A DNA stretch of 64,000 bases from a candidate division WOR-3 bacterium (GTDB lineage Bacteria; Hydrothermota; UBA3072; B12-G15), in the NCBI GenBank assembly GCA_965649055.1, contig CBFGJG010000003.1, forward strand, positions 22,998 through 86,997, read 5' to 3'. Below are positions 20,545 to 51,085 of this stretch, piece by piece (positions within the stretch are counted from its first letter, which is position 1; each line of letters starts with the position of its first letter). The notes under the pieces were generated by a model. The model was given only the letters and a program-made list of their open reading frames with translations. It did not search any database and was not told where the DNA came from. The translations under genes and the position numbers were made by a program.

Positions 20545-20894
20545 CCTATAAGCTCTTTAACCTTGTTTATCAAGGTATCAATAGAAGACGATTTAATAAG
20601 ATAGGCATCGGCACCCCATGTAAGAAAATTATCCCTGTAAGTTCCGTAAGCTGAATTTATTATTATCTTTGTTTCTTTCTTAGCATTCAGAATTCTTCCC
20701 AGTGCTTCAATCCCGTCCATCTGTGGCATCCTTATATCAAGTATAACGAGTTCAAAATTACCTTTTTCAAATTTCTCCACACCTTCTATACCGTTTCTCG
20801 CACATTCCACAAAATATCCTTCGCCTTCAAGGACATCTTTATAAAGGTTCAATATATCCTCATCATCCTCAACCAGAAGAATTTTTTTGGGCAT
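20541..20894 (-). CDS. Single-domain response regulator (CheY-like receiver)
   Basis: KKILLVEDDEDIL, the phospho-acceptor Asp in LVILDIRMPQMDG and a conserved Lys region. 117 aa with a 26-nt overlap to the upstream kinase gene. Confidence 0.8.
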   Translation of the reverse strand: MPKKILLVEDDEDILNLYKDVLEGEGYFVECARNGIEGVEKFEKGNFELVILDIRMPQMDGIEALGRILNAKKETKIIINSAYGTYRDNFLTWGADAYLIKSSSIDTLINKVKELIG

Positions 20895-22206
20895 TTTCCT
20901 CCCTTTTTACGGGTATTTTCATCCTTATTCTTGTTCCAAAACCTTCCTTACTTTCAACTTCTATTTTACCATTATGTAATATAATAATTTTTTTGGTTAT
21001 CGCAAGACCTAATCCCAACCCATCCATTTTTAATGTATGAAAAGGAATAAAAAGATTTTTCATTATTTCATCCGGGATTCCAGAGCCATTATCTTTTATT
21101 TCGATTACTGCATTGTTGTTCTCTTTATATAATAAAATAAAAATCTCTCCATCTTTCTCAATAGCATCTATACTATTTCTTATAACATTTAAAATAGCGT
21201 GCTCAAGTAAAGAACTGTCTGCTACTATGTTAAAATCATCCCTATAATCTTTTATAAGTCGGATATTCTTCCTTGATATATCAGTTTCTACAAAGGATAT
21301 TACATTATCAAGAAATTTACATATGTTAAATTCTTTTAGATCCGGGACAGGGCTTCTTATGTAGTCTGAAAGATTCTGTATAATTAATTCAAGCCTCTTG
21401 GCGGTCTTTGAGATAATCTGGATATAATTTTTCACATCTTGTGGTATATCAGCCCTTTTTGATAATTTTTCAGAATAACCACCTATTATTGCAACGGGTG
21501 TCCTGAGTTCGTGTGCAAAAGTTGATGCTATTTCACCAATAGTGGCAAATTTTTCAAGCCTTATCAGATTCATCTGAGAATTTTTTAATTCAGTATATGC
21601 AGCTTCAAGTTCCATTTGTTTTTTTTTAACATTCTCGAATAACATTGATCTTTCTATTACATTCGATGCTATTGCAGCATAAAGTTCAAGTGTTTTCATA
21701 TCTTTCTCTGTGATTGGGTTGTTTGTGTATCTGTTATCAGCAATTATCAGTCCGAAGAATTCACTTTCACTCCTTAACGGAACGACTACACAGGGAGAAA
21801 ATTTGAAATATTTTTTAAATGACGCTGATAAGGTAGATACATCTTCTATTTTTACAGGTCCGTTGCTTAACAACTGTTCAGGGACTTCTGAAAGGAGCAC
21901 CTCGTCATTTGCTTCAAGCTTTGCAGCTGCCTTTCTTAATGGACATGTATCGAGCAGTTCTTCAAGACCTGTAGGTGAACGGGACATCTCTTCCCATATT
22001 TTTAATGCCTCCTCTTTTGTCTCAGGACCTATCCTTAGTCTTGGTATTAGTTTATCAACTTTTTTTTCCATTAAAACAGCATAATTGAAGGCAAGCCCTT
22101 CGCCAGCGGTTAATGCAGTGAGAATTCTACATAAAGAATCATCTATATCCAGTGATGTATGTAATTCTCTTGATATCCTCCAGAGTTTTTCAAATTCTAT
22201 ATCCAT
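20869..22206 (-). CDS. GAF-domain sensor histidine kinase
   Basis: H-box FAHELRTP, N/G1 and G2 boxes (IKDNGSGIPDE and GLGLGLAITKKII), with an N-terminal GAF-like region. 445 aa. Confidence 0.8.
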   Translation of the reverse strand: MDIEFEKLWRISRELHTSLDIDDSLCRILTALTAGEGLAFNYAVLMEKKVDKLIPRLRIGPETKEEALKIWEEMSRSPTGLEELLDTCPLRKAAAKLEANDEVLLSEVPEQLLSNGPVKIEDVSTLSASFKKYFKFSPCVVVPLRSESEFFGLIIADNRYTNNPITEKDMKTLELYAAIASNVIERSMLFENVKKKQMELEAAYTELKNSQMNLIRLEKFATIGEIASTFAHELRTPVAIIGGYSEKLSKRADIPQDVKNYIQIISKTAKRLELIIQNLSDYIRSPVPDLKEFNICKFLDNVISFVETDISRKNIRLIKDYRDDFNIVADSSLLEHAILNVIRNSIDAIEKDGEIFILLYKENNNAVIEIKDNGSGIPDEIMKNLFIPFHTLKMDGLGLGLAITKKIIILHNGKIEVESKEGFGTRIRMKIPVKREENAQKNSSG

Positions 22207-35301: not shown

Positions 35302-35306
35302 TTAAA

Positions 35307-35765
35307 ATGAAATTTAAAAAAGGGGTTGTTCTTGTAACAACAGTCCTTGTTATGAGCCTTATCCTTGTTGCAGTCTCTGTTGCGCTTTTTTTAACATCAA
35401 AGTCAATAAGGATTACAGGTGCTGAATACAGGTCATACACATCTTTTGAAGCAGCAGAAGGTGGGATAGACAGAGGTTTACAGACAATACACAATGCATT
35501 CAGGATGGGAGAGAGGATTGATACAACATTTTCAATAAATATAACCAGATACAATGTCCAGATTCACCCGGAATTCCTTGCTACTGCACCACAGCCGGGT
35601 GGTGCTATTGAGTTTGCAGTCGGTTATCTCGGACTTGGTGTTGCAGCATCAAGGGGTGGTGCTATGAATGTTTATGCACTAACATCAACTGCATCAAGGA
35701 CAAGGGGTGAATTTACATCACTTGAAACAATAATAAGAAAAGTTATAGGAATAGCAGGGAGGTAG
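35307..35765 (+). CDS. PilX-like minor pilin (N-terminal PilX domain)
   Basis: AGGAGGTGA lies upstream. MKFKKGVVLVTTVLVMSLILVAVSVALFL resembles the PilX N-terminal domain. An alternative GTG start at 35298 overlaps the previous stop. Confidence 0.5.
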   Translation: MKFKKGVVLVTTVLVMSLILVAVSVALFLTSKSIRITGAEYRSYTSFEAAEGGIDRGLQTIHNAFRMGERIDTTFSINITRYNVQIHPEFLATAPQPGGAIEFAVGYLGLGVAASRGGAMNVYALTSTASRTRGEFTSLETIIRKVIGIAGR

Positions 35766-35767
35766 AT

Positions 35768-38700
35768 ATGAAAAAATTTATTTTAATTTTGTTACTGTTT
35801 TCTTTGTCAAGTTATACCCAGACAATGCCCTGTGATGCACCACCAACAATTATGAGGGCTGTAAAACCAAATCTTATTTTTCTCCTTGATATTTCACTCT
35901 CTATGTATGCAAGGGCATACTGGTTTGGTAGTGGTGACCCAAGAACTAATTATAATCCAAATATGCGTTATTATGGTTATTTTCACCCTGATTCAATTTA
36001 CGTTTATAGTGACCCGCAATGGGTTACAACAGGTCAAGGTGCAAATGGTGATTACCGAGTTACAACAACTAACTTTGATTTTAAGAATAAGAGAATACTT
36101 GGGAATATATTAAATTGGGCAACTATGTCAAGATGGGACATTATGAAGAAGGTTCTTGTTGGTGGTGAAGGGAATCCAACTTCAGACTATGTGAATGAAA
36201 AACTGCAAAGCAGGGGTGGTTATACTTCTGGAGATGATGGTTGGCCTACTCCTTTGATTACCCTTGTTTCTGATTCGACAGTTCAATACAGATTTGACAG
36301 GACATCACAGGGAGCAACTTCAATAGTTGTTGATTCTTTTTATAATGGAAAATGGAAAAAGAATTTTACGGCATCGCTGACAAAAATAGATGTTTCAACT
36401 CTTTCTACTGATTACAGGATAGGAATCCTTGCTAAAATAGGTGACCAAGACCTTGATAGAAAATGGGACGGTGGGAATCAGATACCGAGATTTGCAGTTA
36501 TGGTATATACTGAAGATTCTAAAGAAAATAAAATTCTAAAATTAATTAAAGATAATGGTTTCTCCGCTAATGATTCAGGGCAGAATGCTGCCGAATTAAT
36601 TACAGGTATAAAAGAACAACCGATTGGATATGCTACAAATGTTGGTGATGCCATCCTTCAGGCAATACATTATTTTGCTTCCGAAAAAGACCATTTTGGT
36701 AACTACAATAAATTCCCCGATGACCCTTATCTTAGAAAGGTAATAGGAAATATATATGACACATTATGGTGTGCACATTCTTTCGTCGTTCTCCTTGGAG
36801 ATGGACAGGCAAATAGGGATCAAATTGTTACAACAACCGATTATTCAGGAACCCACAGAATTCCTGTTGGCTATAGAGGGGACATACAGTCCTTATGTAG
36901 TTATAATAATAATCTAACAGGATATGATACGGATAGTTGGGATGATGTGAATTCAAAGAAAGACTGTTCAGACGATGGTTATTATACAGAAACAGACCAT
37001 AGGGCAGATGATTATGCATATTATGCACATGTTACAGATTTGAGGGTGGATGGTGGAACAAGAACGCCTTCTAACCTAAAAGGTGAACAAAAATTAACAT
37101 TTTATACAGTTTTTTGTTTTGGAAAAGGTGCAAATCTTTTTAAGAGTATAGCAAAATGGGGTGGATTCAATGATAGAAATTTGGACAAACTACCACAGAG
37201 AGATGAATATGATGAAAACAACGATGGGGTTCCAGATAAATATTATGAAGCAGAAACGGGTGATTCCCTTGAATCATCCATAAGGAAGATTATTTACGAG
37301 GTTATGGCAACTGTTTCTTCCGGAACTGCTACTGCAATAGTTGCAACAGGGACAAGGGGAGAAGGTGTTGGGACTTATGCAATGTATTATCCAAGAAAAT
37401 TCTATGGGCAGACTGCAATTGATTGGATAGGTATGCTTCATGGTGTCTGGGTAGATCCATTTGGAAATCTTAGAGAAGAAACAGAAGGTAATCTACAGAT
37501 GCATCTTAAGAATGATTTTGTTATAAGGATGGAATACGATACTGCTTCGGGAGAAACAAAGGTTTTAAGATACAGAGATATAAATGGTGATAACAAAAAT
37601 TTACAATTTGTAGATCAGGTAAATTATGATAATTTAAAAACAATATTCGACCTTGGAAAATATCTATTAGATGTTTCATCTAATATAAGAAATATCTGGA
37701 CTTTTATTAACAATACTGAAATAGAATTTAAAGCTGCTAACAAAAATATTATAAAGCCATATTTAGATGTTTCTACTGATGGTGAGGCTGATACATTGAT
37801 AAGATATATAAGGGGGGAAAATGACTTTGGTTTTAGAAATAGGAAGCTTCCTGATAATAGACTTTACAAGTTGGGTGATATAATGTTCTCTTCACCACTT
37901 GTTGTAGGGCCGCCTATGGAAAGGTATGACCTGCTTTATGGTGATACAAGTTATATGTCTTATTTCAGAAAATATAATTTTGATGAAAAAAGAAGGTCTG
38001 TGGTTTATGCAGGTGCAAATGATGGAATGTTACACTGTGTAAATATTGGTCTTTACTATACTGATTCAGGTGTTGTTGCAGGACATCTCGACCCTGCAGG
38101 CCATACCCCAGGTAAAGAACTCTGGGCTTATATACCATTTAACCTTTTACCACACCTAAAATGGTTAAAAGAGAAAGAATACTGTCATGTTTATTATGTT
38201 GATTTAAAACCATATCCAACAGATGCTAAGATTTTCACAGCAGATAACACACATATAAATGGATGGGGAACAGTGCTTATTTCTGGCTTCAGAATGGGTG
38301 GAACCAAATACACACTCCCAGGTGGAACAATACTTTCTTCGGGTTATGCATGTATTGATGTCACAAACCCATTAAACCCTGATGTCCTATGGGAATGGAA
38401 GATACCTGAATACACATATTCTACATCCTATCCAAATGTAATTAAAGTTCAAAATAACTGGTATATGATAGTTGGAACAGGACCAACACAATTCAATGGT
38501 TATAGTTCAATAAATGCAAAACTTTATGTTCTTAATCTTTCTGATGGTTCTGTAGTTAAGACATTTACTTTATCAGAACCCCGTTCAGCAATAGGTGATA
38601 TTATTTCTGTTGACCTTGACCTTGATTATAATGTTGATCTTGTTTATTTTGGAACTTATTATGATGCAGTTGGGAATATTGCACCGGCAGATTTTAGGGG

Positions 38701-39424
38701 AAATCTTTATAGATTAAACACAAGAGAATCAGCAGATCCAAACAATTGGACACTTACTAAATTATTTGGACCAACAAGGCCAATTACTGCTGCACCTGCT
38801 GCAACACTTGATGAACAGGGTAAACTCTGGATTTACTTTGGCACTGGTAAATATTTTTCAAGCGATGATGTTTCAGATAAAACTACAGAATATTTTTATG
38901 GTATTAAAGACACTGATACATCTTCAACTGTTTCAATTTCTGAACTTCAAAATGTTACAAATGTTAAAGTTTATGGACCTGATTCTGTTACTGGATTATC
39001 GGGTGTTAAAAATTTCAATGAATTGGAAACGTTCTTAAGAGGGAAGAAAGGATGGTACAGGGTCCTGTCATTTAGTGGTGAAAAATCATTCACAAGACCT
39101 TACGTAATTGGTGGAACACTTGTATACACGACTTTCACCCCAACCGGTGATATATGTGAGGCGACCGGCAAGGGAAGACTTTATGCATTATATTATTACA
39201 CTGGAACTGCCTATAAAAACCCTATTCTTCCCAAAAACCCTATTACAGGTGAACATGAGGTTTTAGCCGACTTAGGGCCAGGTCTTCCAGCTGAGCCAAG
39301 TTTGTATGTTGGTCCTACAGATGAAAAGATATATATACAGATTAGTGGTGCTGTAAAACAGATAGAAAATATAAACCTTGTAATGGACCCAAGGGGTGGT
39401 CTTATAATGTGGAAAAGGAGGTAA
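35768..39424 (+). CDS. pilY1: PilY1/PilC-like type IV pilus tip adhesin with N-terminal vWA (MIDAS) domain and C-terminal beta-propeller
   Basis: 1218 aa with RBS GGGAGG and a signal peptide. MIDAS motif LIFLLDISLSM. The C-terminal region (WIYFGTGKYFSSDD, LYALYYYTG) resembles the PilY1 beta-propeller domain. It follows the fimU-pilV-pilW-pilX order. Confidence 0.7.
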   Translation: MKKFILILLLFSLSSYTQTMPCDAPPTIMRAVKPNLIFLLDISLSMYARAYWFGSGDPRTNYNPNMRYYGYFHPDSIYVYSDPQWVTTGQGANGDYRVTTTNFDFKNKRILGNILNWATMSRWDIMKKVLVGGEGNPTSDYVNEKLQSRGGYTSGDDGWPTPLITLVSDSTVQYRFDRTSQGATSIVVDSFYNGKWKKNFTASLTKIDVSTLSTDYRIGILAKIGDQDLDRKWDGGNQIPRFAVMVYTEDSKENKILKLIKDNGFSANDSGQNAAELITGIKEQPIGYATNVGDAILQAIHYFASEKDHFGNYNKFPDDPYLRKVIGNIYDTLWCAHSFVVLLGDGQANRDQIVTTTDYSGTHRIPVGYRGDIQSLCSYNNNLTGYDTDSWDDVNSKKDCSDDGYYTETDHRADDYAYYAHVTDLRVDGGTRTPSNLKGEQKLTFYTVFCFGKGANLFKSIAKWGGFNDRNLDKLPQRDEYDENNDGVPDKYYEAETGDSLESSIRKIIYEVMATVSSGTATAIVATGTRGEGVGTYAMYYPRKFYGQTAIDWIGMLHGVWVDPFGNLREETEGNLQMHLKNDFVIRMEYDTASGETKVLRYRDINGDNKNLQFVDQVNYDNLKTIFDLGKYLLDVSSNIRNIWTFINNTEIEFKAANKNIIKPYLDVSTDGEADTLIRYIRGENDFGFRNRKLPDNRLYKLGDIMFSSPLVVGPPMERYDLLYGDTSYMSYFRKYNFDEKRRSVVYAGANDGMLHCVNIGLYYTDSGVVAGHLDPAGHTPGKELWAYIPFNLLPHLKWLKEKEYCHVYYVDLKPYPTDAKIFTADNTHINGWGTVLISGFRMGGTKYTLPGGTILSSGYACIDVTNPLNPDVLWEWKIPEYTYSTSYPNVIKVQNNWYMIVGTGPTQFNGYSSINAKLYVLNLSDGSVVKTFTLSEPRSAIGDIISVDLDLDYNVDLVYFGTYYDAVGNIAPADFRGNLYRLNTRESADPNNWTLTKLFGPTRPITAAPAATLDEQGKLWIYFGTGKYFSSDDVSDKTTEYFYGIKDTDTSSTVSISELQNVTNVKVYGPDSVTGLSGVKNFNELETFLRGKKGWYRVLSFSGEKSFTRPYVIGGTLVYTTFTPTGDICEATGKGRLYALYYYTGTAYKNPILPKNPITGEHEVLADLGPGLPAEPSLYVGPTDEKIYIQISGAVKQIENINLVMDPRGGLIMWKRR

Positions 39425-39426
39425 TT

Positions 39427-39825
39427 ATGCAAATTTATGTGTTAATGTTTTTATTGTTATCAAAACCAAATATAAAATTACATTTAGATGATAAAGATGA
39501 AGGCTATCTTTATAGGGGTGGTGCATTTTGTGATAGTATTGTCAATAACATTATCTATCTAAGAGATTGTAAAGAGTTAATATTATCAGAAGATCTGGAT
39601 ATAACCATAGGAAAAAATCCATATTTTTTTGTTGACACACTTGAAAATCCTGTTAATTTATTTACCTTGAAAATGCCCTGTGTTCTTTTAATAGAGATGA
39701 TATTGCCAAAATATTATCCTGAAGACAGTATAGAATTAATGCTTGAAAAGGCAAGAAGTATTCATCGGATTGTATATATAAAAGAAACAACTGAAGAAGA
39801 AATACAGAACTCTTATTGTAAGTGA
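39427..39825 (+). CDS. Hypothetical protein
   Basis: AAGGAGG 5 nt before the ATG at 39427, 3 nt after the pilY1 stop. 132 aa with a hydrophobic N-terminus (MQIYVLMFLLLS). Confidence 0.4.
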   Translation: MQIYVLMFLLLSKPNIKLHLDDKDEGYLYRGGAFCDSIVNNIIYLRDCKELILSEDLDITIGKNPYFFVDTLENPVNLFTLKMPCVLLIEMILPKYYPEDSIELMLEKARSIHRIVYIKETTEEEIQNSYCK

Positions 39826-39841
39826 AATGAAGATTTGAAAA

Positions 39842-40735
39842 ATGGAGGTCGAAATAAAAATGTTAATTTTATTGATAATATTATTATTTTTTTCCTGCAA
39901 TAGGAAATCAGGTGAAAATGTAAAGAATTCTCCCCCTTCCATAGACAGGGCAGAGATAATTCCTTCAATGGTTTATAAAAACACGAAAGCACAGGTTCGC
40001 GTTTTTAGTAAAGATAATGACAAAGATAATATAACCTATAAATTCAAATGGTTCGTTAACGACGAAGAATATCTTGAAGAAAGTGAGATAGAACTTAAAC
40101 TACTTTCAAAAGGGGATAAGATTTATGTTGAAATAACACCTTTTGACGGAAAAGAATATGGAAAACCTTATAGAACGGCAGAAAAATATATAAGGAATTC
40201 AAAACCTGTTATGATAAGCGCAAGGATAGAACCTGATACAATAACTTCCAATGTAAAGGAGATAAAGATTATAGGAAATGGAGAAGATATTGATGGTGAT
40301 AATCTGACTTATACCTGTGAATGGTTCTTAAATAACAAAAAACTCGATGAAACCTCAACTGTTTTAAAGGGAAATTTTAAAAAGAACGATGTTATAAATT
40401 TTATTGTGCGTGCAAACGATGGAGAAGAGACATCTGAAAATTTTGTCAGCGCAGTCATTTATGTAAAGAATGCACCACCTGCATTTCAGATGAAAGAAGA
40501 TTCCATAAAGATTTCATCTAATAGTTTCAATTTTAAGGTAAATGCAATTGATCATGATGGAGATAAGATTAAATATTCTATTGTTTCTTCAAATTTGCCT
40601 TTGACCATTGATGAGAATACGGGTGTTGTTTCAGGACAGATACCCGAAGGGTTTACGGGAATAACTATTCAGGTTAAGGCAGAGGATGGTGAAGGGGCAT
40701 ACAGTATAAAAAATATAAATTTAGGAATAAGATAA
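39842..40735 (+). CDS. Lipoprotein with tandem Ig-like (He_PIG/cadherin-like) repeats
   Basis: Lipobox LLFFSC (the likely start is the internal ATG at 39860). Repeated ~90-aa units (ITYKFKWFVNDEEY... and LTYTCEWFLNNKKL...). C-terminal IDHDGDKIKYSIVSSNLPLTIDENTGVVSGQIP matches the 'putative Ig' motif. Confidence 0.5.
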   Translation: MEVEIKMLILLIILLFFSCNRKSGENVKNSPPSIDRAEIIPSMVYKNTKAQVRVFSKDNDKDNITYKFKWFVNDEEYLEESEIELKLLSKGDKIYVEITPFDGKEYGKPYRTAEKYIRNSKPVMISARIEPDTITSNVKEIKIIGNGEDIDGDNLTYTCEWFLNNKKLDETSTVLKGNFKKNDVINFIVRANDGEETSENFVSAVIYVKNAPPAFQMKEDSIKISSNSFNFKVNAIDHDGDKIKYSIVSSNLPLTIDENTGVVSGQIPEGFTGITIQVKAEDGEGAYSIKNINLGIR

Positions 40736-40742
40736 GAATTTT

Positions 40743-41795
40743 ATGAATAATGGATACATACTTCTTTTGACAACTTTTTTAATATTGATTTTTTCTTTTA
40801 TTGGATTTACAATTTTATTAAATTTAAATATTGAAATAAAAAATGTGTCTAATGAGATTAATAGTTTTGTAGATATAAACAATGTTGAAGATGCACTTAA
40901 AGAAGTTATATTCAGGTTATCGGATTCTCAAAGCCAGTATTATATTGGTGAAACTGGTATTTTAAACCCTGATTGGTCCATTGTTATTACAAATAGTGAA
41001 ATAAAAAAAGAAATTCATAAAAGGGTTTATTCATCTGTAAAATTTTTATTCGGTGATACCCTAAATAAAATAGAAGAAATAAGGCTTTCTTATAAAAAGA
41101 AAGATGGACTACTCTATTTCTATGATGAAAAGAATAATGTCCAATTTGCAGGTGAGCCAAAAGAGTTTTCGAATAGATTCAAACCTGTTATAATTGTAGA
41201 TATTAACCAGAAAAAAAAATATTATGAAAAAAATAGAAGGTATGAAATAGTTGAAGTTAATAATAATTCAGAGATTGAAAATGTTCTATATTTTCAGAAT
41301 ACATATTTTGACTCAATATCTCCTATTGTTATCTGTGATTTTGACCATAGGGAGGATATTCCATTTAACACAAATATAGATTTCTGTAAAGTATTTCATA
41401 ATGGGAATGGAAATTCATATCAAGGGAAACAGAAAATTAATCTTGAATTTCAGAATATAAAGTGGAAAGACACTATCAAGGAAGAATTTGGGTTTTATAG
41501 ATTGGATGAATTGAAAAATGATATAAAAGGTAAAGGATTGATTTATTTTGGAAGAGACCTAAGGTTGAATGGAAATGTAAACATATACTGGAAAGGTCTT
41601 TTTTATATAGATGGTTCTTTGATTATTTCACCTGAATATTCAGGCACAATCTGGATATGCGGTTCTTTATCTGTTAAAAATGATATTATTTATATGGGAA
41701 AAAGAAATGATGTTATAACTATTCTATATTCATCAGAAAACCTGAGATTCCTGAATCATAAAAAATTCTTGATTCTGAATGAAAGGATGGAATGA
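40743..41795 (+). CDS. Membrane-anchored hypothetical protein (pilus-associated?)
   Basis: N-terminal hydrophobic anchor GYILLLTTFLILIFSFIGFTILL resembles pilin-like N-termini but lacks the G-F/E motif. 350 aa. Confidence 0.4.
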   Translation: MNNGYILLLTTFLILIFSFIGFTILLNLNIEIKNVSNEINSFVDINNVEDALKEVIFRLSDSQSQYYIGETGILNPDWSIVITNSEIKKEIHKRVYSSVKFLFGDTLNKIEEIRLSYKKKDGLLYFYDEKNNVQFAGEPKEFSNRFKPVIIVDINQKKKYYEKNRRYEIVEVNNNSEIENVLYFQNTYFDSISPIVICDFDHREDIPFNTNIDFCKVFHNGNGNSYQGKQKINLEFQNIKWKDTIKEEFGFYRLDELKNDIKGKGLIYFGRDLRLNGNVNIYWKGLFYIDGSLIISPEYSGTIWICGSLSVKNDIIYMGKRNDVITILYSSENLRFLNHKKFLILNERME

Positions 41796-42721
41796 AAAAA
41801 ATATCTTTAATAGTGAACTTTTTTTCTTTTAAGAAGATGCAGAATACTGTCCTTGAAATTGAGAAAAGACTCAAAAACTCCGGATTTAACACTGATTTAA
41901 AGGTTACTGATTATCCTTTTCACGCATATTATATTGCAAGGGATTCTGTGTTGAATGGTTCTTCCCTGATTGTATCGTTAGGTGGAGATGGAACAATAAA
42001 TGAGGTGATAAATGGTGTTTTATCTATTAAAGAGCAAGAATTACCGGAAATAGGTTTTATACCGCTCGGGACAGGTGTTGATTTTGTGAAAACAGTTGGT
42101 ATATCAAGGAAAATGGAAGAGGCACTTGATACAATAATAAATGGTGATGTTATATATTCAGATGTCGGGAGGGTTGTCCTAAATGAAAATGAGAAAGTTT
42201 ATACAAGATATTTTATAAATGTTCTTGATGCAGGGCTTGGTGGTAGTGTTGTTAGAATAGCCAGGAGATTACCCAAATCACTTGGTGGATATCCTGTGTT
42301 CCTTATTTCAAGTCTTTTGGGAATATTAACATTTAAACCATTCAAGGTAAAGATATTCATTGATGACGAATTTGTAGATGAAGGAAAAATAACCATTATA
42401 GGTGCAGCTAATGGAAGATATTTTGGGGGCGGTATGCATATTGCACCTATGGCAAAGATAGACGATGGAATCTTTGAATTCCTTTATGTTAAAGATACAA
42501 ATATATACACATTCATAAAAGAGGTGTTATTACCTGTTTATGACGCAAATCATCTTAAATATAAAAAACTTTACCATTTTAGGGGTAAAAAACTTAAGAT
42601 TTTAGGTGAAAATCATTTTCTTTTTGAGATGGACGGTGAACCTCTAAAGGCAAGGGAGATAGAATTAAGTATAGTTCAAAATAGAATTAAACTGAAGATT
42701 CCAAGAAAAAATCACTATTGA
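41792..42721 (+). CDS. Diacylglycerol-kinase catalytic-domain lipid kinase (YegS/BmrU family)
   Basis: VSLGGDGTINEVINGV contains the DAGK_cat GGDGT motif. 309 aa, with an ATGA overlap to the upstream gene. Confidence 0.75.
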   Translation: MKKISLIVNFFSFKKMQNTVLEIEKRLKNSGFNTDLKVTDYPFHAYYIARDSVLNGSSLIVSLGGDGTINEVINGVLSIKEQELPEIGFIPLGTGVDFVKTVGISRKMEEALDTIINGDVIYSDVGRVVLNENEKVYTRYFINVLDAGLGGSVVRIARRLPKSLGGYPVFLISSLLGILTFKPFKVKIFIDDEFVDEGKITIIGAANGRYFGGGMHIAPMAKIDDGIFEFLYVKDTNIYTFIKEVLLPVYDANHLKYKKLYHFRGKKLKILGENHFLFEMDGEPLKAREIELSIVQNRIKLKIPRKNHY

Positions 42722-42760
42722 CATTTTACATTAAGAACATATAATTAACAAAAATGTTAA
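42718..42760 (+). promoter_or_regulatory. Promoter (TTGACA-16-TATAAT) followed by palindrome TTAACA-AAAA-TGTTAA upstream of the AbiEi-like gene
   Basis: TTGACA at 42718-42723 overlaps the DAGK stop, and TATAAT is at 42740-42745. A perfect 6-bp inverted repeat at 42745-42760 overlaps the predicted transcription start. Confidence 0.45.
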
Positions 42761-42766
42761 TTTTTT

Positions 42767-43333
42767 ATGCTTAATGATAAACTTTTCTTTTCTGTTGAAG
42801 ATATTTCAAAAGAAAGAAGGATTTCAATAGGTTCTTCTAGAGTTTATCTTTCGAGGAAAATTAAGAAAGGCGATTTTTTAAGAGTTAAAAGGGATTTTTA
42901 TATAAAAACAGAAAGATTTTCAAATATGGGACTAGAAGAATTTTTTTATATTTCGAATTTTCTCCAATCTCCTTCTTATATTTCTCTTATGACTGCTTTA
43001 AATTTTTATGATATGACGTTACAGGTTCCAAGAATTATAGAAAATATATGTATTTACAGGACTAAAATATATACTGTAAAAGATTTTGAATTCAAGTATT
43101 ACAAGATAAACAGAAAACTCTTTTTTGGATATATAAGGGAAGGAAGTTTTTTTATTGCGACAAAGGAAAAAGCATTTTTTGATATGCTTTATCTTGCATC
43201 TTTTGGAAAATATCAATTTTCTATTTCTGAGATAAATTTAGATAGGTTTGACAAAAAAATATTAATTAATTTAGAAAAAAAATATCCAGAAAAGACAAAG
43301 CAATTTTTTAGAAAAATATGGAAGAACTTATAA
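42767..43333 (+). CDS. AbiEi-like antitoxin / transcriptional regulator (type IV TA, abortive-infection family)
   Basis: 188 aa immediately upstream of, and overlapping by 16 nt, a DUF1814/AbiEii-type nucleotidyltransferase. The N-terminal region has a winged-helix-like character. The assignment rests mainly on gene-pair context. Confidence 0.45.
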   Translation: MLNDKLFFSVEDISKERRISIGSSRVYLSRKIKKGDFLRVKRDFYIKTERFSNMGLEEFFYISNFLQSPSYISLMTALNFYDMTLQVPRIIENICIYRTKIYTVKDFEFKYYKINRKLFFGYIREGSFFIATKEKAFFDMLYLASFGKYQFSISEINLDRFDKKILINLEKKYPEKTKQFFRKIWKNL

Positions 43334-43989
43334 AACAGGAAAAATTTGAGATAGAAGTTCTTGAAAAAATGAAGAATAAAGGACATTTAAAAAACCTTAT
43401 ATTTTGTGGTGGAACAATGTTAAGACTTTGTTATGGTTTAAACAGGTATTCTTTAGACCTTGATTTCTGGCTTTTAAAAAAAATTGAAGTAAATATTTTT
43501 TTTGATGGAATTAAAGACTTTTTCGCTTCTGAATATATATTAACAGATGCATCAAATAAATTTCATACTCTTCTTTTTGAGATCAAATCAAAAAAGTATC
43601 CCAAAAAGTTAAAGATAGAAATAAGAAAAGAAGAGAAAAATATAAAAACGGAAAAAATGATTGCATTCAGTAAACACTCTAATATTCAAGTAATAGTGGA
43701 TGTTCCCACATTACAAGAAATGCTAAATGAAAAAATAATAACATTTATTGAAAGGAAGGAAATCAGAGATGCCTTTGATATTGAATTTATAACAAGAAGA
43801 GGTATTCTACTTTCAGTTACAAAGGAGAATGCAAAAAAAATACTCGAAACTATAGAATCACTTAAAAAAGTTGATTATAATGTAAAATTAGGTTCAATAC
43901 TTGAAAAAGGAGAAAGAGAATACTACAAGAAACAGAATTTTAATTTTTTAAAAACGATTTTGTATTCTATTATAAATAGAGAAGATTAA
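43318..43989 (+). CDS. AbiEii/AbiGii-family nucleotidyltransferase toxin (DUF1814)
   Basis: LIFCGGTMLRLCYGLNRYSLDLDFWL matches the AbiEii N-terminal nucleotidyltransferase motif (GGTAL...R-x-S-x-D-L-D-F). 223 aa. Confidence 0.6.
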   Translation: MEELIKQEKFEIEVLEKMKNKGHLKNLIFCGGTMLRLCYGLNRYSLDLDFWLLKKIEVNIFFDGIKDFFASEYILTDASNKFHTLLFEIKSKKYPKKLKIEIRKEEKNIKTEKMIAFSKHSNIQVIVDVPTLQEMLNEKIITFIERKEIRDAFDIEFITRRGILLSVTKENAKKILETIESLKKVDYNVKLGSILEKGEREYYKKQNFNFLKTILYSIINRED

Positions 43990-43993
43990 AATA

Positions 43994-44021
43994 TTGACAA
44001 ATTTCATTGAATTCTTATAAT
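43994..44021 (+). promoter_or_regulatory. Consensus sigma-70 promoter TTGACA-16-TATAAT 8 nt before the leuS ATG (leaderless leuS)
   Basis: TTGACA at 43994-43999 and TATAAT at 44016-44021. The ATG is at 44030 with no SD sequence. Confidence 0.6.
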
Positions 44022-44029
44022 GTATAAAA

Positions 44030-46456
44030 ATGGAAAAAGAATATAATTTTAAAGAGATAGAAAAAATAGCAAGGGAAAAATGGGAAAGACTTTCTTTATA
44101 TAAGACTCCCGAAAATCCAAGGAAGAAGTTTTATCTCCTTGAGATGTTTCTTTATCCTTCGGGTGATATACATATGGGACATTGCAGAAATTATGTAATA
44201 GGTGATCTGATTTACAGATATAAAAGGATGAATGGATATGATATCCTTCATCCATTCGGATGGGATGCATTTGGGTTACCTGCTGAACAGGCAGCAATTA
44301 AAAGGGGTGCATCACCAAAAAAATGGGTTTATAATAACATAAATACATCTAAGAACACTTTAAAATTACTGAATATAAGTTATGACTGGGATAGGGAAGT
44401 TCTGACAGCAGAACCTTCTTATTATAAATGGAATCAGTGGATTTTCCTAAGATTGTATGAGAAAGGATTAGCATATAGAAAAAAATCCTATGTGAACTGG
44501 TGCCCGAGTTGTAAAACTGTTTTAGCTAATGAACAGGTTATCGGTGGAAGATGCTGGAGATGTGATTCAATCATTATAAAGAAAGAAATGGAACAATGGT
44601 ATTTCAAGATAACCGAATACGCAGAAAGATTGCTTCAAGGAATAGAAAGGTTGAAAGATTGGCCTGAAAACATAAAAACAATGCAGAAAAACTGGATAGG
44701 GAAGAGTATAGGAACAGAGATTGAATTTGATACAATAGATGGCGAGACTCTAAAAGTTTTCACAACAAGGGCTGATACACTTTTTGGTGTCACATTTATA
44801 TCAGTTGCACCTGAACATCCTTTTGCAAATGGAATAGATAAAAAAGAAGTTAAAGAATATATTGATAAGGCTCTGCTTATGACAGAGATAGATAGACAGA
44901 GTCAGGAAAGGGAAAAAACAGGCGTGTTTTCAGGTGTTTATGCAATCCATCCTTTGACAGGAGAAAAAGTCCCTGTTTTTGTAGCAGACTATGTGCTTTC
45001 AAGTTATGGAACTGGTGTTGTTATGGGTGTTCCTGCTCATGACCAGAGGGATTTTGAATTTGCTAAGAAATACAATCTACCGATAAAGGTGGTAATAAGC
45101 CCTGATGGAAAAGATTATGCTCCAGATATACTTGATAAGGCTTATGAGGAATATGGGATACTTGTAAATTCTTTTGAATTTAATGGTATGGATTCAAAAA
45201 CTGCAATTGATAGAATAAACGATAAACTCGAAAGACTGAATAAAGGAAGAAAGAAAATTACATATAAATTAAGGGACTGGCTTGTGTCAAGGCAGAGATA
45301 CTGGGGAACCCCTATACCTATGATACATTGCCCTGAATGCGGGATTGTCCCTGTTCCGGAAAATGAATTACCTGTTGTATTACCACCTGAAGATAAAGTG
45401 AATTTTATTCCACAGGGCAGGTCACCACTTGAGGACTGTTCTGAATTTTATAATGTGAAATGCCCTAAATGTGGTGGTGATGCACACAGGGACCCTGATA
45501 CAATGGATACATTTGTTGATTCATCCTGGTATCATTTAAGATACTTTGACCCAAAAAATGATAAGGAGATATTTAAAAGGGGAGAAGCGGATAAATGGTT
45601 CCCTATAGATTTATACATAGGTGGTGCTGAACATGCAACAGGACACCTTATATATTTCAGGTTCATAACTAAATTCCTTTACGATTTAGGTTACCTTAAA
45701 GATGATGAACCTGCTATAAGATTATTCAATCAGGGAATGGTATGTGATGAGAAAGGTCAGGTTATGTCAAAATCAAAAGGTAATACAGTAAGCCCAATTG
45801 ATATGATGAATAAGATAGGGCTTGATGCTACAAGGATAGCAGTTATATTTGCTGCACCACCTGAGAAGGATATTTTATGGTCAACAAAAGACCTTGCAGG
45901 TTCCGAAAGATTCTTAAAGAGGATTTATAACCATTTTACACCTTATATTTCAAGAAAGAACCCATTACCTGATAAAGATGATATTTTATATAAGAAGATA
46001 GAAAGGACAAAGAAATTCATAACAGAACACATTGAGAATTTTCTTTTTAATACTGCCGTAGCAGGTTTGATGGAAATGCTCAATGACATAACTGCCTATG
46101 AAGATAAAGGGAATGATACTTATGCTTATGTAATACAGGAATTCACAAAAATTCTCGCTCCTTTTGCCCCACATATATCTGAATATCTATATTCATTCTT
46201 TGGTAAGAAGGAAAGTATATTTTTTGAAGAATGGCCAAAGTATGACGAGGATGCGCTTTTTGACGAAGTGGTAACTGTCATAATACAGGTAAATGGTAAA
46301 TTAAGGGGAAAGGTTGAGGCAAAAAAAGGTTCAGATGAAAAGGATATCTTTGATAAGGCTATAAAGGATGAAAATATAAGAAAATTTATTGATGGAAAAG
46401 ATGTACTAAAAAAAATTTATATTCAGGATAAGATTCTTAATATTGTGGTGAAATAA
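44030..46456 (+). CDS. leuS: Leucine--tRNA ligase
   Basis: HIGH motif (HMGHCRNY), KMSKS motif (VMSKSKGNT) and the CP1 editing and Zn-knuckle regions (CPSCKT...CWRC, CPKCGG). 808 aa. Confidence 0.95.
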   Translation: MEKEYNFKEIEKIAREKWERLSLYKTPENPRKKFYLLEMFLYPSGDIHMGHCRNYVIGDLIYRYKRMNGYDILHPFGWDAFGLPAEQAAIKRGASPKKWVYNNINTSKNTLKLLNISYDWDREVLTAEPSYYKWNQWIFLRLYEKGLAYRKKSYVNWCPSCKTVLANEQVIGGRCWRCDSIIIKKEMEQWYFKITEYAERLLQGIERLKDWPENIKTMQKNWIGKSIGTEIEFDTIDGETLKVFTTRADTLFGVTFISVAPEHPFANGIDKKEVKEYIDKALLMTEIDRQSQEREKTGVFSGVYAIHPLTGEKVPVFVADYVLSSYGTGVVMGVPAHDQRDFEFAKKYNLPIKVVISPDGKDYAPDILDKAYEEYGILVNSFEFNGMDSKTAIDRINDKLERLNKGRKKITYKLRDWLVSRQRYWGTPIPMIHCPECGIVPVPENELPVVLPPEDKVNFIPQGRSPLEDCSEFYNVKCPKCGGDAHRDPDTMDTFVDSSWYHLRYFDPKNDKEIFKRGEADKWFPIDLYIGGAEHATGHLIYFRFITKFLYDLGYLKDDEPAIRLFNQGMVCDEKGQVMSKSKGNTVSPIDMMNKIGLDATRIAVIFAAPPEKDILWSTKDLAGSERFLKRIYNHFTPYISRKNPLPDKDDILYKKIERTKKFITEHIENFLFNTAVAGLMEMLNDITAYEDKGNDTYAYVIQEFTKILAPFAPHISEYLYSFFGKKESIFFEEWPKYDEDALFDEVVTVIIQVNGKLRGKVEAKKGSDEKDIFDKAIKDENIRKFIDGKDVLKKIYIQDKILNIVVK

Positions 46457-46460
46457 ATCT

Positions 46461-48155
46461 TTATTCTTTTGATATCTCATAAACTATAAAACGAGAATTC
46501 TTATATACTTCTTTAAAATTCAAACATTTTTCACTTTTCCACCTTACAATATAAATCCTTTCTGGTTTACTCTCCCAATTAAATATCTCCTGAGAAATTT
46601 TCCGAAAATCTTCTTCATAAAGGTCGTTGAAATCTTGATAATCAACAAGACCATCTTTGTAAAATATTTTTTTTTGTTTCAACTCTTGTAAATCCCTATT
46701 GTATCCTAATTTTTTCATCCTTCTGAACCACTCATATCCAAATTCAGGATTAAAATTTAACAAAGTCCCATCATACCAATCACCATATATTGTTCTTTCA
46801 GATTGAATCCTAAAACCATATTGGGTAGGAGGAACTATAAAAACATCATTTATCCTTGTATTTTTTTTAGCCCATTCTTGAGCGTCAATCCATGCTTTTT
46901 TATTTGGAGTGTCACTGTATTTAGTAATTATGAAAATTTTCAAAAAAATAACTACTAAAAGCATCATTAATAAGATAAGATTATTTAGATATTTTTCTTT
47001 TATATTTAAATTTCTATATTGATAAATAACTTTTGTAAATGTAATAATAATAAATACAGATAGAATTACTTCAAATATCGCGAAGCCGTAAAGTATAAAA
47101 AAAGCGACTATTAATGTTAAGAATTTATAAATCAATTTTTTCCCTTCTTTTGTTTCTTCATAAAAATAATGCACAAAATATATTACACCAAATATATATA
47201 TATAAATAAAGCTTCTAAAAACTTGTAAATTCAAAATTAAAGTCAAAGGTAAAAATTCAGAGAAGATAAAACCTATTAAACATAATGAAAATATTACAGA
47301 TGAAAAAATTACTATCATTCTATGTATTCTGAACTCAGGTTTATTTCTCCAAGTGATAAAGTATCCTGTTATAAAAAGAAAATTTTGAATGTATAAATCT
47401 TTTTTCCAGGACAATGGAAATAAATGTTCAGGTGAACGAAGCCTCAGTAAAAGAACCCAATTTTTATCCGGAATAAAATTCAAGCTTTCTGGAGAATAAA
47501 CAATTCTCCATATAATAATTGGTGATGAGATAATAAAGAAAATTGTAAGAGATATTATAAATTTTTTTATACCTATTTCCTTTATCTCAAAAAATGTAGC
47601 AACTATAATCATTATAATCACATATAGGGAACTTAATGGATGGATAAGAAAGCCAATACCTAAAAATATGTATGATTTAATATAATCTCTTGCTAAAAAA
47701 TAATAAATTGAGAAAATTAGAAAAGGTGCAACAACAAATCTTGTGATAACCATATTTTCTTGCAAAAGAATATTTGTGAATGTAAATCTATTAAAAAGAA
47801 ATATAAAAAGTGAGAGATATGTGGCAGTTTCATTTTTTGTAATTATCCTTGTGATAAGATATAATGCAAAAAATCTGAAATATATGGTTAAAATATAAAT
47901 TAAAGTGAAAAGTGCTTTTATATCAATATGGGTAAATTTTAAAATGCATGCTACTATATGCCATAATATAGTATAGTAATATTTCATTTCACCAATAATA
48001 TAATCGGAGGGATAAAGGCTTTTACACATTATCTTATTTATAAATGGAATTACAATATTATGGTCATATATATAATACTTTTGAGAATTGAATATAACAA
48101 TTTCTAAAATAGTAAAGAGTAAAACTATGATATGTGTTTTATATTTTTTGAACAT
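46461..48155 (-). CDS. Polytopic membrane protein, unknown family (copy 1 of duplicated module)
   Basis: 564 aa with more than 10 predicted transmembrane segments and a C-terminal soluble domain (WIDAQEWAKKNTRINDVFIVPP...NFNPEFGYEWFRRMKKLGY). Clear paralog of the gene at 51075..52730. A leaderless-type promoter (TTGACA-16-TATACT) ends 9 nt before its ATG. Confidence 0.5.
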   Translation of the reverse strand: MFKKYKTHIIVLLFTILEIVIFNSQKYYIYDHNIVIPFINKIMCKSLYPSDYIIGEMKYYYTILWHIVACILKFTHIDIKALFTLIYILTIYFRFFALYLITRIITKNETATYLSLFIFLFNRFTFTNILLQENMVITRFVVAPFLIFSIYYFLARDYIKSYIFLGIGFLIHPLSSLYVIIMIIVATFFEIKEIGIKKFIISLTIFFIISSPIIIWRIVYSPESLNFIPDKNWVLLLRLRSPEHLFPLSWKKDLYIQNFLFITGYFITWRNKPEFRIHRMIVIFSSVIFSLCLIGFIFSEFLPLTLILNLQVFRSFIYIYIFGVIYFVHYFYEETKEGKKLIYKFLTLIVAFFILYGFAIFEVILSVFIIITFTKVIYQYRNLNIKEKYLNNLILLMMLLVVIFLKIFIITKYSDTPNKKAWIDAQEWAKKNTRINDVFIVPPTQYGFRIQSERTIYGDWYDGTLLNFNPEFGYEWFRRMKKLGYNRDLQELKQKKIFYKDGLVDYQDFNDLYEEDFRKISQEIFNWESKPERIYIVRWKSEKCLNFKEVYKNSRFIVYEISKE

Positions 48156-48320
48156 ATTTTTTAGTATATTTTAATAATAATATTTGTCAAGTTTTTGGCG
48201 TCATGTGTTAACATTTGACATTTTCGTATATTTAGTTTCAATTGAATTAAGAAATATTGAATTGTGATAGAAAAAAGAAAATGATTTGACATAAAGTAAA
48301 ATATGCTTAATAATAAAAAT

Positions 48321-50249
48321 ATGTCTAACAATTGTTTAGGCAAAGTTGCATTAAGATTGAAAAAAAACTTTGTTTTAATTCTTTTGTTCTTATCGTTTAT
48401 ACTCATATATTTTTCATACATACGTGCAGATCCACCTGCTAAAAAAATATGGTGTTATGGTGTATATTTGACAGACGAAGGATTTAGAGTCATATCTGCA
48501 AGAAACCGAGTTTTATTTGGTATGCCTGACAGAACAACAAGTTTACTAAATAAAAATATTACATTTTTTCCATTACCACATTTAATCTATCTTGCAACCT
48601 TTAAAATCATTGGTGTTGGATTTTTACAGGCAAGATTAGTATCAATATTTTTCGGATTATTAAGCCTTATTGTCTTTTTCTTTATAACAAAACGGCTTTT
48701 TTCAAGAAATGTTTCTTTTTTCTGTTTATATCTCTTAGGAATAAATCATATATTTATTTTTTACTCTAAACTTGCACTTGCAGAGTCAATTCTCGTTTTT
48801 TTTACATTATTAATTTTTTATCTCTTAATCTCAAGCGATAAAAACTTTATATTTTTGTTTTCTGGATTTCTTTGTGGTCTTTTAATCTTTATAAAAACTC
48901 AAAGTATCCCATTTATTTTTTCAATCTTTTTTTGCATTTTGATTGATTTTAAAAAGAATCTTAGATTATTTTTTATTAGAATACTATTTTTTCTTTTAGG
49001 ATTTATTGGAATAATTATTGTTTCTTTTTTAATTATGTTTATCACGAAAAGCACCGAATTATTTATTAGAGGTGCTTCATCCGAAGTTTTTTTAAGACTA
49101 ACGATATTCACAAAAGAAATAGTTAAGAATTTTCTTGATTTTCCTCACACTAATATTTATTTTCATTCCCCAATACAATCATATTTGGGATTATTATTAA
49201 CCTTTGGTATTTTGCTAAAAATTATAAAAAAGATGGAAATTGAATTCCCTGAAAGATTTATAGCATTTTTTACTATATTAAATTGTATTATGATATCTAT
49301 ATTTTTATATCAACCTATTAGATATTTTATAATTATGATACCTTTTTTTATAATTGGCTTTGGAATTCTAATCACCCAAAGATATAAATTTTTTATAGAA
49401 AATTTATTCAAAAAAATTTGTTTATTTATATTATCTGGTTATTTATCTATTTTTTCAATATTGCTTATTATCTCATTAATTGACATAAACACAATAGATT
49501 CTAAAAATACAATTTCAGCTCTTTTAATTTCGATCGTAATGGTTATAATAATTTTTAGTCTAAAAATAAATTTCTGGAAAAACTTTAATGCGATGAAGAT
49601 ATTTCAATTCATTTTTGTTTCATTATTTTTTATTTTCTTTATATCACATATTATTCTTAGAGATGCAGAATATATACTAATCGGCAAAATGAAAATAAGT
49701 CCATCTCTATATTTTTATGTCTTCATTTTTTTTATCCCATTATTTATATGTCTATCAATAATCCCCTTTTTTCTGTTTCTTTACACCGATAACGAAAAAA
49801 AAGAAGATTATGAAAAGATATCAAGATTAGGCTATTTTATAATTGGGATTTTATTGATTTCTTCATTTATAAACATCTATCATTATCTTTACTGGTTAAA
49901 AACAAAGGAATATACTTTATATAATACTTCAAAAGATATAGTAAAAATAACAAGTGAAGAGTGTGTGATATTTGGAAGGGCTGCTCCGACTTTATCTATT
50001 GAAAATGAAATAATGGCTTCAAGCAGTATCCATTTTTTACCTGAATTCATTTTATTTTTTAAAGAGAAAAATATTCCAATATATTTACTATTCTCAAACA
50101 GGGAAGAATATGGAATGTTTATAAAAACCTATAATAATCTCCTATCTTTATATGGAGTAAAAAATTATATACTTCTTAAAGAATATAAAGTTTTAGAAAA
50201 TTACGATTATATTTCAAATCTTTTACTTTTTTATGTAAGTTTTCGTTAA
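48321..50249 (+). CDS. GT-C-fold membrane glycosyltransferase-like protein (ArnT/PMT, GT39/GT83-like), copy 1
   Basis: Polytopic with the N-terminal DE-containing loop (GVYLTDEGFRV) typical of GT-C enzymes. The start was chosen at the ATG at 48321 directly downstream of TTGACA-17-AATAAT. An alternative ATG lies at 48303. Confidence 0.45.
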   Translation: MSNNCLGKVALRLKKNFVLILLFLSFILIYFSYIRADPPAKKIWCYGVYLTDEGFRVISARNRVLFGMPDRTTSLLNKNITFFPLPHLIYLATFKIIGVGFLQARLVSIFFGLLSLIVFFFITKRLFSRNVSFFCLYLLGINHIFIFYSKLALAESILVFFTLLIFYLLISSDKNFIFLFSGFLCGLLIFIKTQSIPFIFSIFFCILIDFKKNLRLFFIRILFFLLGFIGIIIVSFLIMFITKSTELFIRGASSEVFLRLTIFTKEIVKNFLDFPHTNIYFHSPIQSYLGLLLTFGILLKIIKKMEIEFPERFIAFFTILNCIMISIFLYQPIRYFIIMIPFFIIGFGILITQRYKFFIENLFKKICLFILSGYLSIFSILLIISLIDINTIDSKNTISALLISIVMVIIIFSLKINFWKNFNAMKIFQFIFVSLFFIFFISHIILRDAEYILIGKMKISPSLYFYVFIFFIPLFICLSIIPFFLFLYTDNEKKEDYEKISRLGYFIIGILLISSFINIYHYLYWLKTKEYTLYNTSKDIVKITSEECVIFGRAAPTLSIENEIMASSSIHFLPEFILFFKEKNIPIYLLFSNREEYGMFIKTYNNLLSLYGVKNYILLKEYKVLENYDYISNLLLFYVSFR

Positions 50250-50293
50250 AAAGGGTATGTTGACAAAATTTTAACTGATTATAGAATAAATAT

Positions 50294-51085
50294 ATGAAAA
50301 TTAATAAATGTTTTCTATTATTCGTTTTTTACATTTCTTTATTTGCAGATGCTGAATTTTCATTACTTTTTAAGTCTCAAATTGGGAATACTATATCAAG
50401 AACCAAGGTAAGATGCTATTTGAATAATCAAAACTTGCGTTTTGATTTCATTTTTCCTTATTTTAGGAATGAAAGTGATATTGACCGGAGTAAAAAAGAT
50501 TTTGTAAATGACCAAGTCTACTGGATATACAACTTTAAAACTTCTAATTTTTTTATTGTAAACCCCAAAAAGCACATCTATTATGAATTTAAAGAAAATA
50601 TAATTACTCCACTATTAAACGAAAATAAAGAAATTAACCATATTAGAAATATAAAAATTGTAGTTAAGAAGCTAAAGGATGAAATTGTTGAAAACTTTTT
50701 ATGTAACCATTACTACATAAGTTATACATATGAAATGCCTTTGGGTCCTCATCAAATGGATAAAAAAATATTAATAGAAGAGAAAAAAGAAATATGGGTT
50801 ACAAATAACTTAATATTCAAATATATTCCTTTAACTTTAAAAAAAGCATTCATTTTATCCGGAATTGAACAGATAGATAGTATAATTTTTAAAAAAATAG
50901 ATACTGAAGAATTAGGATTTGTTTTGAAACTTTTAAACTATAAATTAACAAGAGAAAACAATGAAATAAAACAGTATACAAGTGAATTTAAGATAGCAAA
51001 TATTGAGGAACGGCACAATATACCTGAAGACATTTTCATAATACCCCAAAATTATAAGAAAATAAATATAGAATTTAGAAATTAG
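50294..51085 (+). CDS. Secreted hypothetical protein
   Basis: Signal peptide MKINKCFLLFVFYISLFADA. 263 aa. TTGACA-16-TAGAAT ends 6 nt before the ATG. The 3' end overlaps the convergent gene by 11 nt. Confidence 0.45.
   Translation: MKINKCFLLFVFYISLFADAEFSLLFKSQIGNTISRTKVRCYLNNQNLRFDFIFPYFRNESDIDRSKKDFVNDQVYWIYNFKTSNFFIVNPKKHIYYEFKENIITPLLNENKEINHIRNIKIVVKKLKDEIVENFLCNHYYISYTYEMPLGPHQMDKKILIEEKKEIWVTNNLIFKYIPLTLKKAFILSGIEQIDSIIFKKIDTEELGFVLKLLNYKLTRENNEIKQYTSEFKIANIEERHNIPEDIFIIPQNYKKINIEFRN

Follow-up and report, generated by a model that had tools for sequence, protein, structure and literature searches.

AbiE toxin-antitoxin systems, which, according to one account (PMC11375011), rank fourth in abundance among the phage-defence systems of prokaryotes, combine a COG5340/AbiEi antitoxin with a DUF1814/AbiEii nucleotidyltransferase toxin. 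Transfer of nucleotides to tRNA 3' ends has been shown for the MenT toxins of Mycobacterium tuberculosis and for Streptococcus agalactiae AbiEii, which uses pyrimidines and prefers tRNAs with a long variable arm. In the S. agalactiae toxin, the Arg, Asp, and Lys motif residues are needed for toxicity (PMC3985639) and T65 is the site of autophosphorylation (bioRxiv 10.64898/2026.01.19.700257); type VII behaviour is now proposed for S. agalactiae AbiE as well as for MenAT1 and MenAT3. AbiEi binds the S. agalactiae operator with positive cooperativity, one monomer to each 23-bp repeat (PMC3985639; PMC7319586). Here, we analysed a pair of overlapping genes, abiEi and abiEii, in a stretch of 64,000 nucleotides (nt) from a candidate division WOR-3 bacterium (contig CBFGJG010000003.1; hereafter, the window) and compared it with these systems and with homologous loci from metagenomes. 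The pair very probably forms a self-contained toxin-antitoxin, abortive-infection module of the AbiE family (COG5340/AbiEi plus DUF1814/AbiEii). To judge from its sequence, it is an intact, ordinary member of this very common family and, because AbiE is so abundant, another member is unsurprising. What goes beyond routine annotation are the promoter/operator consensus of the subfamily, the exact extent of the conserved unit, and a natural deletion scar in a close relative.

The pair compared with described AbiE and MenAT systems

The module extends over ~1.27 kb from its own -35 box to the abiEii stop codon and lies, as a preliminary description of this DNA had stated, between a lipid kinase gene (YegS/BmrU family; TIGR00147; Pfam DAGK_cat and YegS_C) and leuS (TIGR00396, 1008 bits). 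The first gene, abiEi (42767..43333, + strand), encodes an AbiEi-like antitoxin/repressor of 188 amino acids (aa), recognised by its open reading frame (ORF), PADLOC match, homologue alignment, and predicted fold. The second, abiEii (43318..43989, + strand), encodes a DUF1814 nucleotidyltransferase toxin of 223 aa, assigned by Pfam, PADLOC, homologues, and predicted fold. According to the ORF coordinates, the two frames overlap by 16 nt (43318..43333, + strand), which suggests translational coupling of the two genes. S. agalactiae AbiE is likewise a bicistronic operon of overlapping abiEi and abiEii genes, with an overlap of 4 nt instead of 16 nt.

The 223-aa protein had been ascribed to AbiEii/DUF1814 on the basis of an N-terminal motif, and the profile searches agree with this. 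The motif, CGGTMLRLCYGLNRYSLDLDFW, is present, and the protein matched Pfam PF08843 (AbiEii, DUF1814) with 57.7 bits (gathering score 22.5; E 2e-15) and PADLOC model PDLC02330 with 285.6 bits (6e-86) over residues 1-218 of the 219-position model. Nucleotidyltransferase motifs I-III (G-G/S; R-x-x-x-D-h-D; K-x6-R) are all found. Alignment with 40 homologues revealed G31, T33, R43, S45, D47, D49, K139, R146, D151, and D154 as invariant and G32 as kept in at least 90%, and all 43 columns that are invariant among the homologues are retained in the window protein. The DUF1814 toxin of S. agalactiae shares R-x-[ST]-x-D-x-D and K-x6-R, and R43-x-S45-x-D47-x-D49 and K139-x6-R146 show the same spacing as R63, T65, D67, D69 and K173, R180 of that protein. 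The Ser/Thr located two residues before the first catalytic Asp is S45 in R43-Y-S45-L-D47; it is invariant in the subfamily and occupies the position of T65, so that the phospho-acceptor would be Ser here and Thr in S. agalactiae. A Ser/Thr phospho-acceptor at the equivalent active-site position is also a feature of the M. tuberculosis MenAT systems, whose toxins MenT1, MenT3, and MenT4 share the DUF1814 nucleotidyltransferase fold.

The predicted AbiEii model (predicted local distance difference test, pLDDT, 95.1) best matched the Helicobacter pylori DUF1814 protein JHP933 (PDB 4o8s, 4ok0) and then the toxin MenT1 (8an4, the fourth structural match). JHP933, which is of similar size and the closest solved structure (sequence E 2.5e-5, profile 5e-9, fold E 4e-8, template modelling score ~0.55), has the GxT...R-x-S-x-D-L-D-F and R-D-x-F-D motifs in common with AbiEii, but the two sequences are only 19% identical. 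A profile search of PDB sequences with AbiEii returned only JHP933 and, weakly, MenT4 (6y56), and the profile did not reach the S. agalactiae toxin by sequence; the latter was described as a His-tagged protein of ~33 kDa, compared to 223 aa here. The nearest AbiEii homologue is ~60% identical, public databases contain more than 2,600 clustered homologues, and those with named hosts span several phyla.

For the 188-aa partner, the proposed AbiEi type and the 16-nt overlap were borne out by the coordinates, by profiles, and by structural comparison. The protein matched 24 PADLOC AbiEi models, best PDLC02241 (2e-26, 91 bits, residues 7-173), and retains all 19 columns invariant among its homologues, of which the best is ~47% identical. 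The predicted model (pLDDT 93.8) consists of an N-terminal helix-helix-beta-hairpin of the winged-helix type (helices 10-17 and 21-34, beta-hairpin 37-47) and an alpha/beta C-terminal domain. The solved structure that matched it best, along its entire length, was S. agalactiae AbiEi (6y8q, E 1.8e-5), whereas winged-helix regulators matched the N-terminus alone. S. agalactiae AbiEi is similarly built, with ~190 aa, an N-terminal winged helix, and a C-terminal domain; identity in the structural alignment is 13%, and a PDB sequence search with the window AbiEi yielded no match. The M. tuberculosis COG5340 antitoxins (MenA3/Rv1044, Rv2827c) autoregulate via 23-bp inverted repeats, whereas MenA1 is unrelated to AbiEi. 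Compared with the PADLOC AbiE subfamily itself (PDLC02330, PDLC02241), no difference was apparent, and the window pair represents a divergent member (~60% identity for the toxin, 47% for the antitoxin).

Several observations weigh against assigning the pair to AbiE. Of the two Pfam families that had been suggested as a check, AbiEii scored above its cut-off, but AbiEi_4 stayed below (20 versus 25 bits), and no NCBIfam model matched either protein. D151 and D154 are invariant after R146, but their spacing is unlike that between R180 and D192 (motif IV) in S. agalactiae AbiEii; equivalence of D151/D154 to D192 is plausible. The N-terminus of AbiEi is ~3-6 residues shorter than in its homologues, although L008, L018, and L050 have the same short form, in which the ATG lies 14 nt from the centre of the palindrome (see below). 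T84-L85-Q86-V87 of AbiEi corresponds, by position only, to the loop with the essential D85-E86-I87 in S. agalactiae AbiEi, and one residue of the loop differs from the homologues (TLQ versus TTQ). The host is apparently an uncultured WOR-3-related lineage, the named homologues of its lipid kinase falling near candidate division WOR-3. In E. coli, S. agalactiae AbiE conferred no protection from 32 coliphages, and a defence role should not be assumed for every member of the family. For the window pair, we infer DNA binding, toxicity, neutralisation, phosphorylation, tRNA modification, and phage resistance from the characterised systems. Motif IV aspartate aside, the pair appears to carry the sequence-level features that define AbiE.

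The abiE promoter overlaps a conserved palindrome

Upstream of abiEi, a -35 hexamer TTGACA (42718..42723, + strand) and a -10 hexamer TATAAT (42740..42745, + strand) are separated by a 16-nt spacer, and the consensus promoter named in the preliminary description is indeed a 12/12 match (42718-42745). TTGACA is kept at an equal distance in most homologous loci. The lipid kinase gene ends within the -35 box, which contains its TGA stop codon (42719-42721). Perfect TTGACA-16-TATAAT sites occur five times in the window compared to an expectation of 0.14, four of them just upstream of genes, and the organism therefore evidently uses consensus sigma-70 promoters.

The palindrome TTAACA-N4-TGTTAA (42745-42760) is exact and lies at the predicted transcription start, as had been noted, and it is the sole copy in the window (0.02 expected). 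It does not follow the -10 box, however, but overlaps it by one base, and the unit comprises ~48 bp rather than the 6-N4-6 core alone. The core extends to AATTAACA-N4-TGTTAATT (42743-42762), which we refer to as the inner boxes, and beyond these to imperfect arms of 27 nt, which are complementary at 78% and contain a second perfect pair of boxes, CATTAAG/CTTAATG (outer boxes). Its centre (42752/42753) is ~7 nt past the -10 box, where transcription is expected to start. Based on the palindrome and its conservation in homologous loci, we delimited a putative AbiEi operator of 48 bp (42729..42776, no strand) with two arms of 22 nt around AAAA, which spans the -10 box located in its left arm, the predicted start (~42752), and the first abiEi codons. 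No other operator copy was better than two mismatches, and the counts were at chance level. Within each arm (42729-42750 and 42755-42776), an outer CTAAG-like and an inner TTAAC-like box start 13 bp apart; with two related boxes per arm, the palindrome might offer four AbiEi sites instead of two.

In its geometry, this element is similar to the S. agalactiae operator: 22-N4-22 here and 23-N3-23 there, both overlapping the promoter (PMC3985639; PMC7319586). The sequences are unrelated. Here, conservation extends over the inner (TTAACA) as well as the outer (CTAAG-like) boxes, whereas it is the outer 11 bp that are perfect in S. agalactiae. In contrast to the single palindrome with a 4-bp gap in the window, Rv2827c acts on four repeats that are 13 bp apart, with negative cooperativity.

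To compare the locus more broadly, we used 80 loci with AbiEii homologues (46-60% identity) from a metagenome scan. Wherever the upstream DNA was long enough, essentially every AbiEii gene was directly preceded by one for an AbiEi homologue (36-47% identity). The antitoxin gene comes first, with an overlap of 4-16 nt, in 60/69 loci; the overlap is 13 nt in 49/69, 4 nt in 7/69, and, as in the window, 16 nt in 4/69. Operator statistics were based on 64 distinct regions upstream of abiEi-abiEii pairs on unrelated metagenome contigs, excluding the window, and on shuffled controls. At least 10 of the 12 core positions matched in 57/64 upstream regions compared to 3.8% of shuffles, and at least 11 in 42/64 compared to 0.3%. 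Anchored on the core, the 48-bp consensus of the subfamily reads TacTAAGTATATATAATTAACA-AAAA-TGTTAATTATgTATaCTTAgTA. In register, the arms were complementary in 77.5% of cells versus 32-41% when one arm was slid by 1-3 columns. The arms also covary, with one mirrored position being A:T in 26 loci and C:G in 10: although kinship among the loci somewhat inflates these statistics, the covariation score reached 0.196 (0.143 +/- 0.011 in shuffles, exceeded by 0/500) and within-locus complementarity 15.07/22 (14.13 +/- 0.19 with right arms permuted between loci).

Two promoter layouts were observed. In most loci, including the window, the -10 box TATAAT resides in the left arm with TTGACA 16-17 nt upstream, whereas in L013, L016, L017, L026, L035, L041, and L083 the left inner box is directly preceded by TTGACA and the right arm contains the -10 box. 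In the loci with this second layout, the operator occupies the promoter spacer and the start codon follows ~10 nt further on, an arrangement of the leaderless type. The palindrome covers the core promoter in both layouts. Conservation of palindrome and promoter upstream of pairs on unrelated contigs upholds the earlier reading of the palindrome as an operator, and strong comparative evidence points to the conserved palindrome as the predicted binding site of AbiEi. It also provides a sharply defined promoter/operator consensus for one large AbiE subfamily from more than 50 independent loci, a substrate for work on DNA recognition by AbiEi.

Arm covariation alone cannot separate DNA symmetry from RNA pairing, and the palindrome could in principle act as an RNA hairpin, either as terminator or attenuator of the upstream pilus/kinase operon or as a 5'-UTR (untranslated region) structure. 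As RNA, 42724-42781 folds with -11.7 kcal/mol (z = -4.8), and a run of six T follows the inner stem in the window. This T-run, however, is not conserved in homologous loci, the stem is almost entirely A-T, and a terminator scan did not call it. Moreover, transcripts from the abiE promoter itself lack the left arm, and in loci with the second layout both arms, the palindrome accompanies abiE into unrelated upstream contexts, and binding to inverted repeats arranged in this way is known from characterised AbiEi proteins. We therefore regard a hairpin as very unlikely and the operator as the preferred interpretation.

Among homologous loci, conservation runs from the -35 box to the toxin stop codon. 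Because it ends at these two points, the mobile unit coincides with the module coordinates, and a conserved unit of exactly "-35 box to toxin stop codon" shows what moves between genomes. By eye, the flanks of L015, L033, and L051 place several abiE pairs within gene clusters for glycosyltransferases and asparagine-synthase-like proteins (polysaccharide biosynthesis); in other homologous loci, the pair adjoins AAA-ATPase-like genes (likewise assigned by eye).

Acquisition and deletion of the pair

To examine the same junction in relatives, we compared the contigs carrying the three closest homologues of the kinase. In L006 (kinase 64% identical) and L005 (75%), the kinase gene adjoins leuS with spacers of 90 nt and 109 nt, respectively, and without abiE. 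In L004, the closest relative (kinase 92%, LeuS 96% identical), a deletion scar is found instead. Downstream of the kinase stop codon, L004 retains both hexamers of the abiE promoter (-35 and -10), the entire palindrome, in which one base is substituted, and the leuS promoter, while the first 25 nt of abiEi are fused directly to the last 40 nt of abiEii. The missing stretch of ~1.16 kb (42792..43949, no strand, by comparison with L004) has TTTT at either edge and comprises almost the whole of the two genes, so that an 8-codon stub (MLNEKLFF-stop) is left. It follows that the ancestor shared by the window and L004 already carried the pair, and that L004 later lost it in one step; in L005 and L006, it was either ancestrally absent or lost without trace. 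The suggestion that the pair is an accessory insertion holds, as it is not universal in relatives. Sequence comparison thus indicates that the abiE pair is accessory at this locus, and that it was acquired between two core genes and then deleted cleanly in a close relative. As such, the locus would represent a clean natural case of toxin-antitoxin gain followed by deletion between core genes in an uncultured WOR-3-related lineage.

These data also bear on whether the two proteins are a housekeeping nucleotidyltransferase and an ordinary transcription factor conserved at this locus. The pair does sit between core genes, and no recombinase or other mobility gene is adjacent to it among the window ORFs examined. 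Yet L005 and L006 lack it at this junction and L004 has deleted it, its nearest homologue is only ~60% identical with named homologues from several phyla, neither leuS nor this kinase gene is a neighbour in any of the homologous loci (0/80), and the matches to protein families are AbiE-specific, which makes a housekeeping function exceedingly improbable. Only 39/2346 locus pairs share any flanking homologue, and unrelated flanks together with the distribution over several phyla agree with horizontal spread of the AbiE module, as far as can be judged from sequence comparisons. Searches of plasmid and phage collections (tblastn with AbiEii) gave no match and hence no sign of a plasmid or phage vehicle. 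A scan of genome contigs with the kinase retrieved only a 45%-identical protein of a TA06 bacterium, without synteny, whose 815-aa neighbour is not LeuS.

Base composition, which had also been put forward as a check, gave a mixed result. The abiE pair has a GC content of 24-25% compared to an ORF mean of 31.6 +/- 4.4%, and its GC content at third codon positions is ~2 standard deviations low. Several neighbouring core-like genes, however, are equally low, and 14/193 windows are more deviant in tetranucleotides. For these reasons, base composition alone is suggestive of acquisition, but not decisive.

The right edge of the module is marked by a separate, perfect leuS promoter (43994..44021, + strand, consensus match), which begins 4 nt past the end of abiEii and leaves 8 nt to the leuS ATG. 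We also considered a cassette that inserts at promoters, given an 8-nt direct repeat, TATTGACA, at both edges (42715-42723 and 43991-43999). It coincides with the abiE and leuS -35 boxes, and TTGAC[AT] occurs at most 60 nt past the toxin stop codon in only 6/61 homologous loci; the repeat is probably just two -35 boxes. An operator remnant in the L005 spacer was dismissed as well, since it matches at only 9/12 positions, as is common in shuffles. There is also no sign of a functional adjacency to leuS, as no other homologous locus adjoins this gene.

In L004 (1100-1255, the counterpart of window 42718-42791 plus 43950-44032), the leuS promoter is directly preceded by the abiE promoter and operator without the repressor, and the perfect abiE promoter stands ~100 nt upstream of leuS. 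Gain or loss of the cassette could conceivably rewire expression of this essential gene, although we consider this rather unlikely; with the repressor gone, the abiE promoter left in L004 would be unrepressed.

The deletion in a sister lineage raises the question of whether the module is an inactive relic in the course of being lost, with open frames that no longer give a working toxin or repressor. The short AbiEi N-terminus, the deviating loop residue, and a GC content below that of the neighbours could be read in this way. Both frames are intact, however, with all invariant columns of AbiEii (43) and AbiEi (19) kept, both predicted folds exceed a pLDDT of 93, the promoter is a 12/12 match, the core palindrome is perfect, and the short N-terminus recurs in three homologous loci. 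Decay seems highly improbable, and a functional AbiE module remains the favoured interpretation.

Proposed mechanism and role

By analogy with the characterised systems, AbiEi would bind both arms of the palindrome via its winged helix and occlude the promoter, resulting in negative autoregulation and a low steady level of the operon. Through the gene overlap, toxin and antitoxin translation would be coupled. The C-terminal domain of AbiEi would bind AbiEii, most likely triggering autophosphorylation of Ser45 and thereby abolishing nucleotide binding, whereas free, unphosphorylated AbiEii would add nucleotides to tRNA 3' ends and halt translation and growth. Such toxin-driven arrest could abort phage infection or penalise loss of the locus.

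The second of these outcomes leads to the possibility that the pair is a selfish addiction cassette that stabilises itself and has no phage-defence role in this host. AbiE systems stabilise plasmids (PMC3985639), and the failure of S. agalactiae AbiE to protect E. coli from 32 phages (see above) would fit this. The pair sits among core genes, and the neighbours tested yielded no other defence gene: neither a PADLOC search of 20 other ORFs nor a Pfam scan of 23 ORFs for defence domains gave a match, which, as a partial check, agrees with the earlier claim of the pair being the only recognisable defence module in the window. In contrast, Lactococcus lactis AbiE and related DUF1814 systems do confer phage resistance, and L004 lost both genes in one deletion, showing that addiction does not prevent loss. 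We consider an addiction cassette without defence role possible, but clearly the less likely interpretation; it is compatible with the AbiE module proposed here, and the molecular mechanism would be common to both.

Neighbouring genes

The leuS start codon is located 8 nt after the -10 box of its perfect promoter (43994-44032), with identical spacing in L004 and L005, and the gene at 20869..22206 (- strand) begins 6 nt after another perfect promoter (22206-22240, - strand). The mRNAs of both genes look leaderless, which suggests that leaderless translation may be common in this lineage. The lipid kinase gene is immediately preceded by a cluster of type IV pilus minor-pilin-like genes (32886-41795), which is syntenic in L005 and L006 and includes a protein with an N-terminal methylation motif, PilW, a 1218-aa PilY1-like protein, and a protein with Big_9/He_PIG repeats. 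Further downstream (46461-52790), two paralogous large DUF6798 membrane proteins (46461-48155 and 51075-52790, both - strand) flank a PMT_2-type glycosyltransferase and a 263-aa ORF without Pfam or PADLOC match; the genes of this region are all very low in GC (23-26%), the same as the abiE pair.

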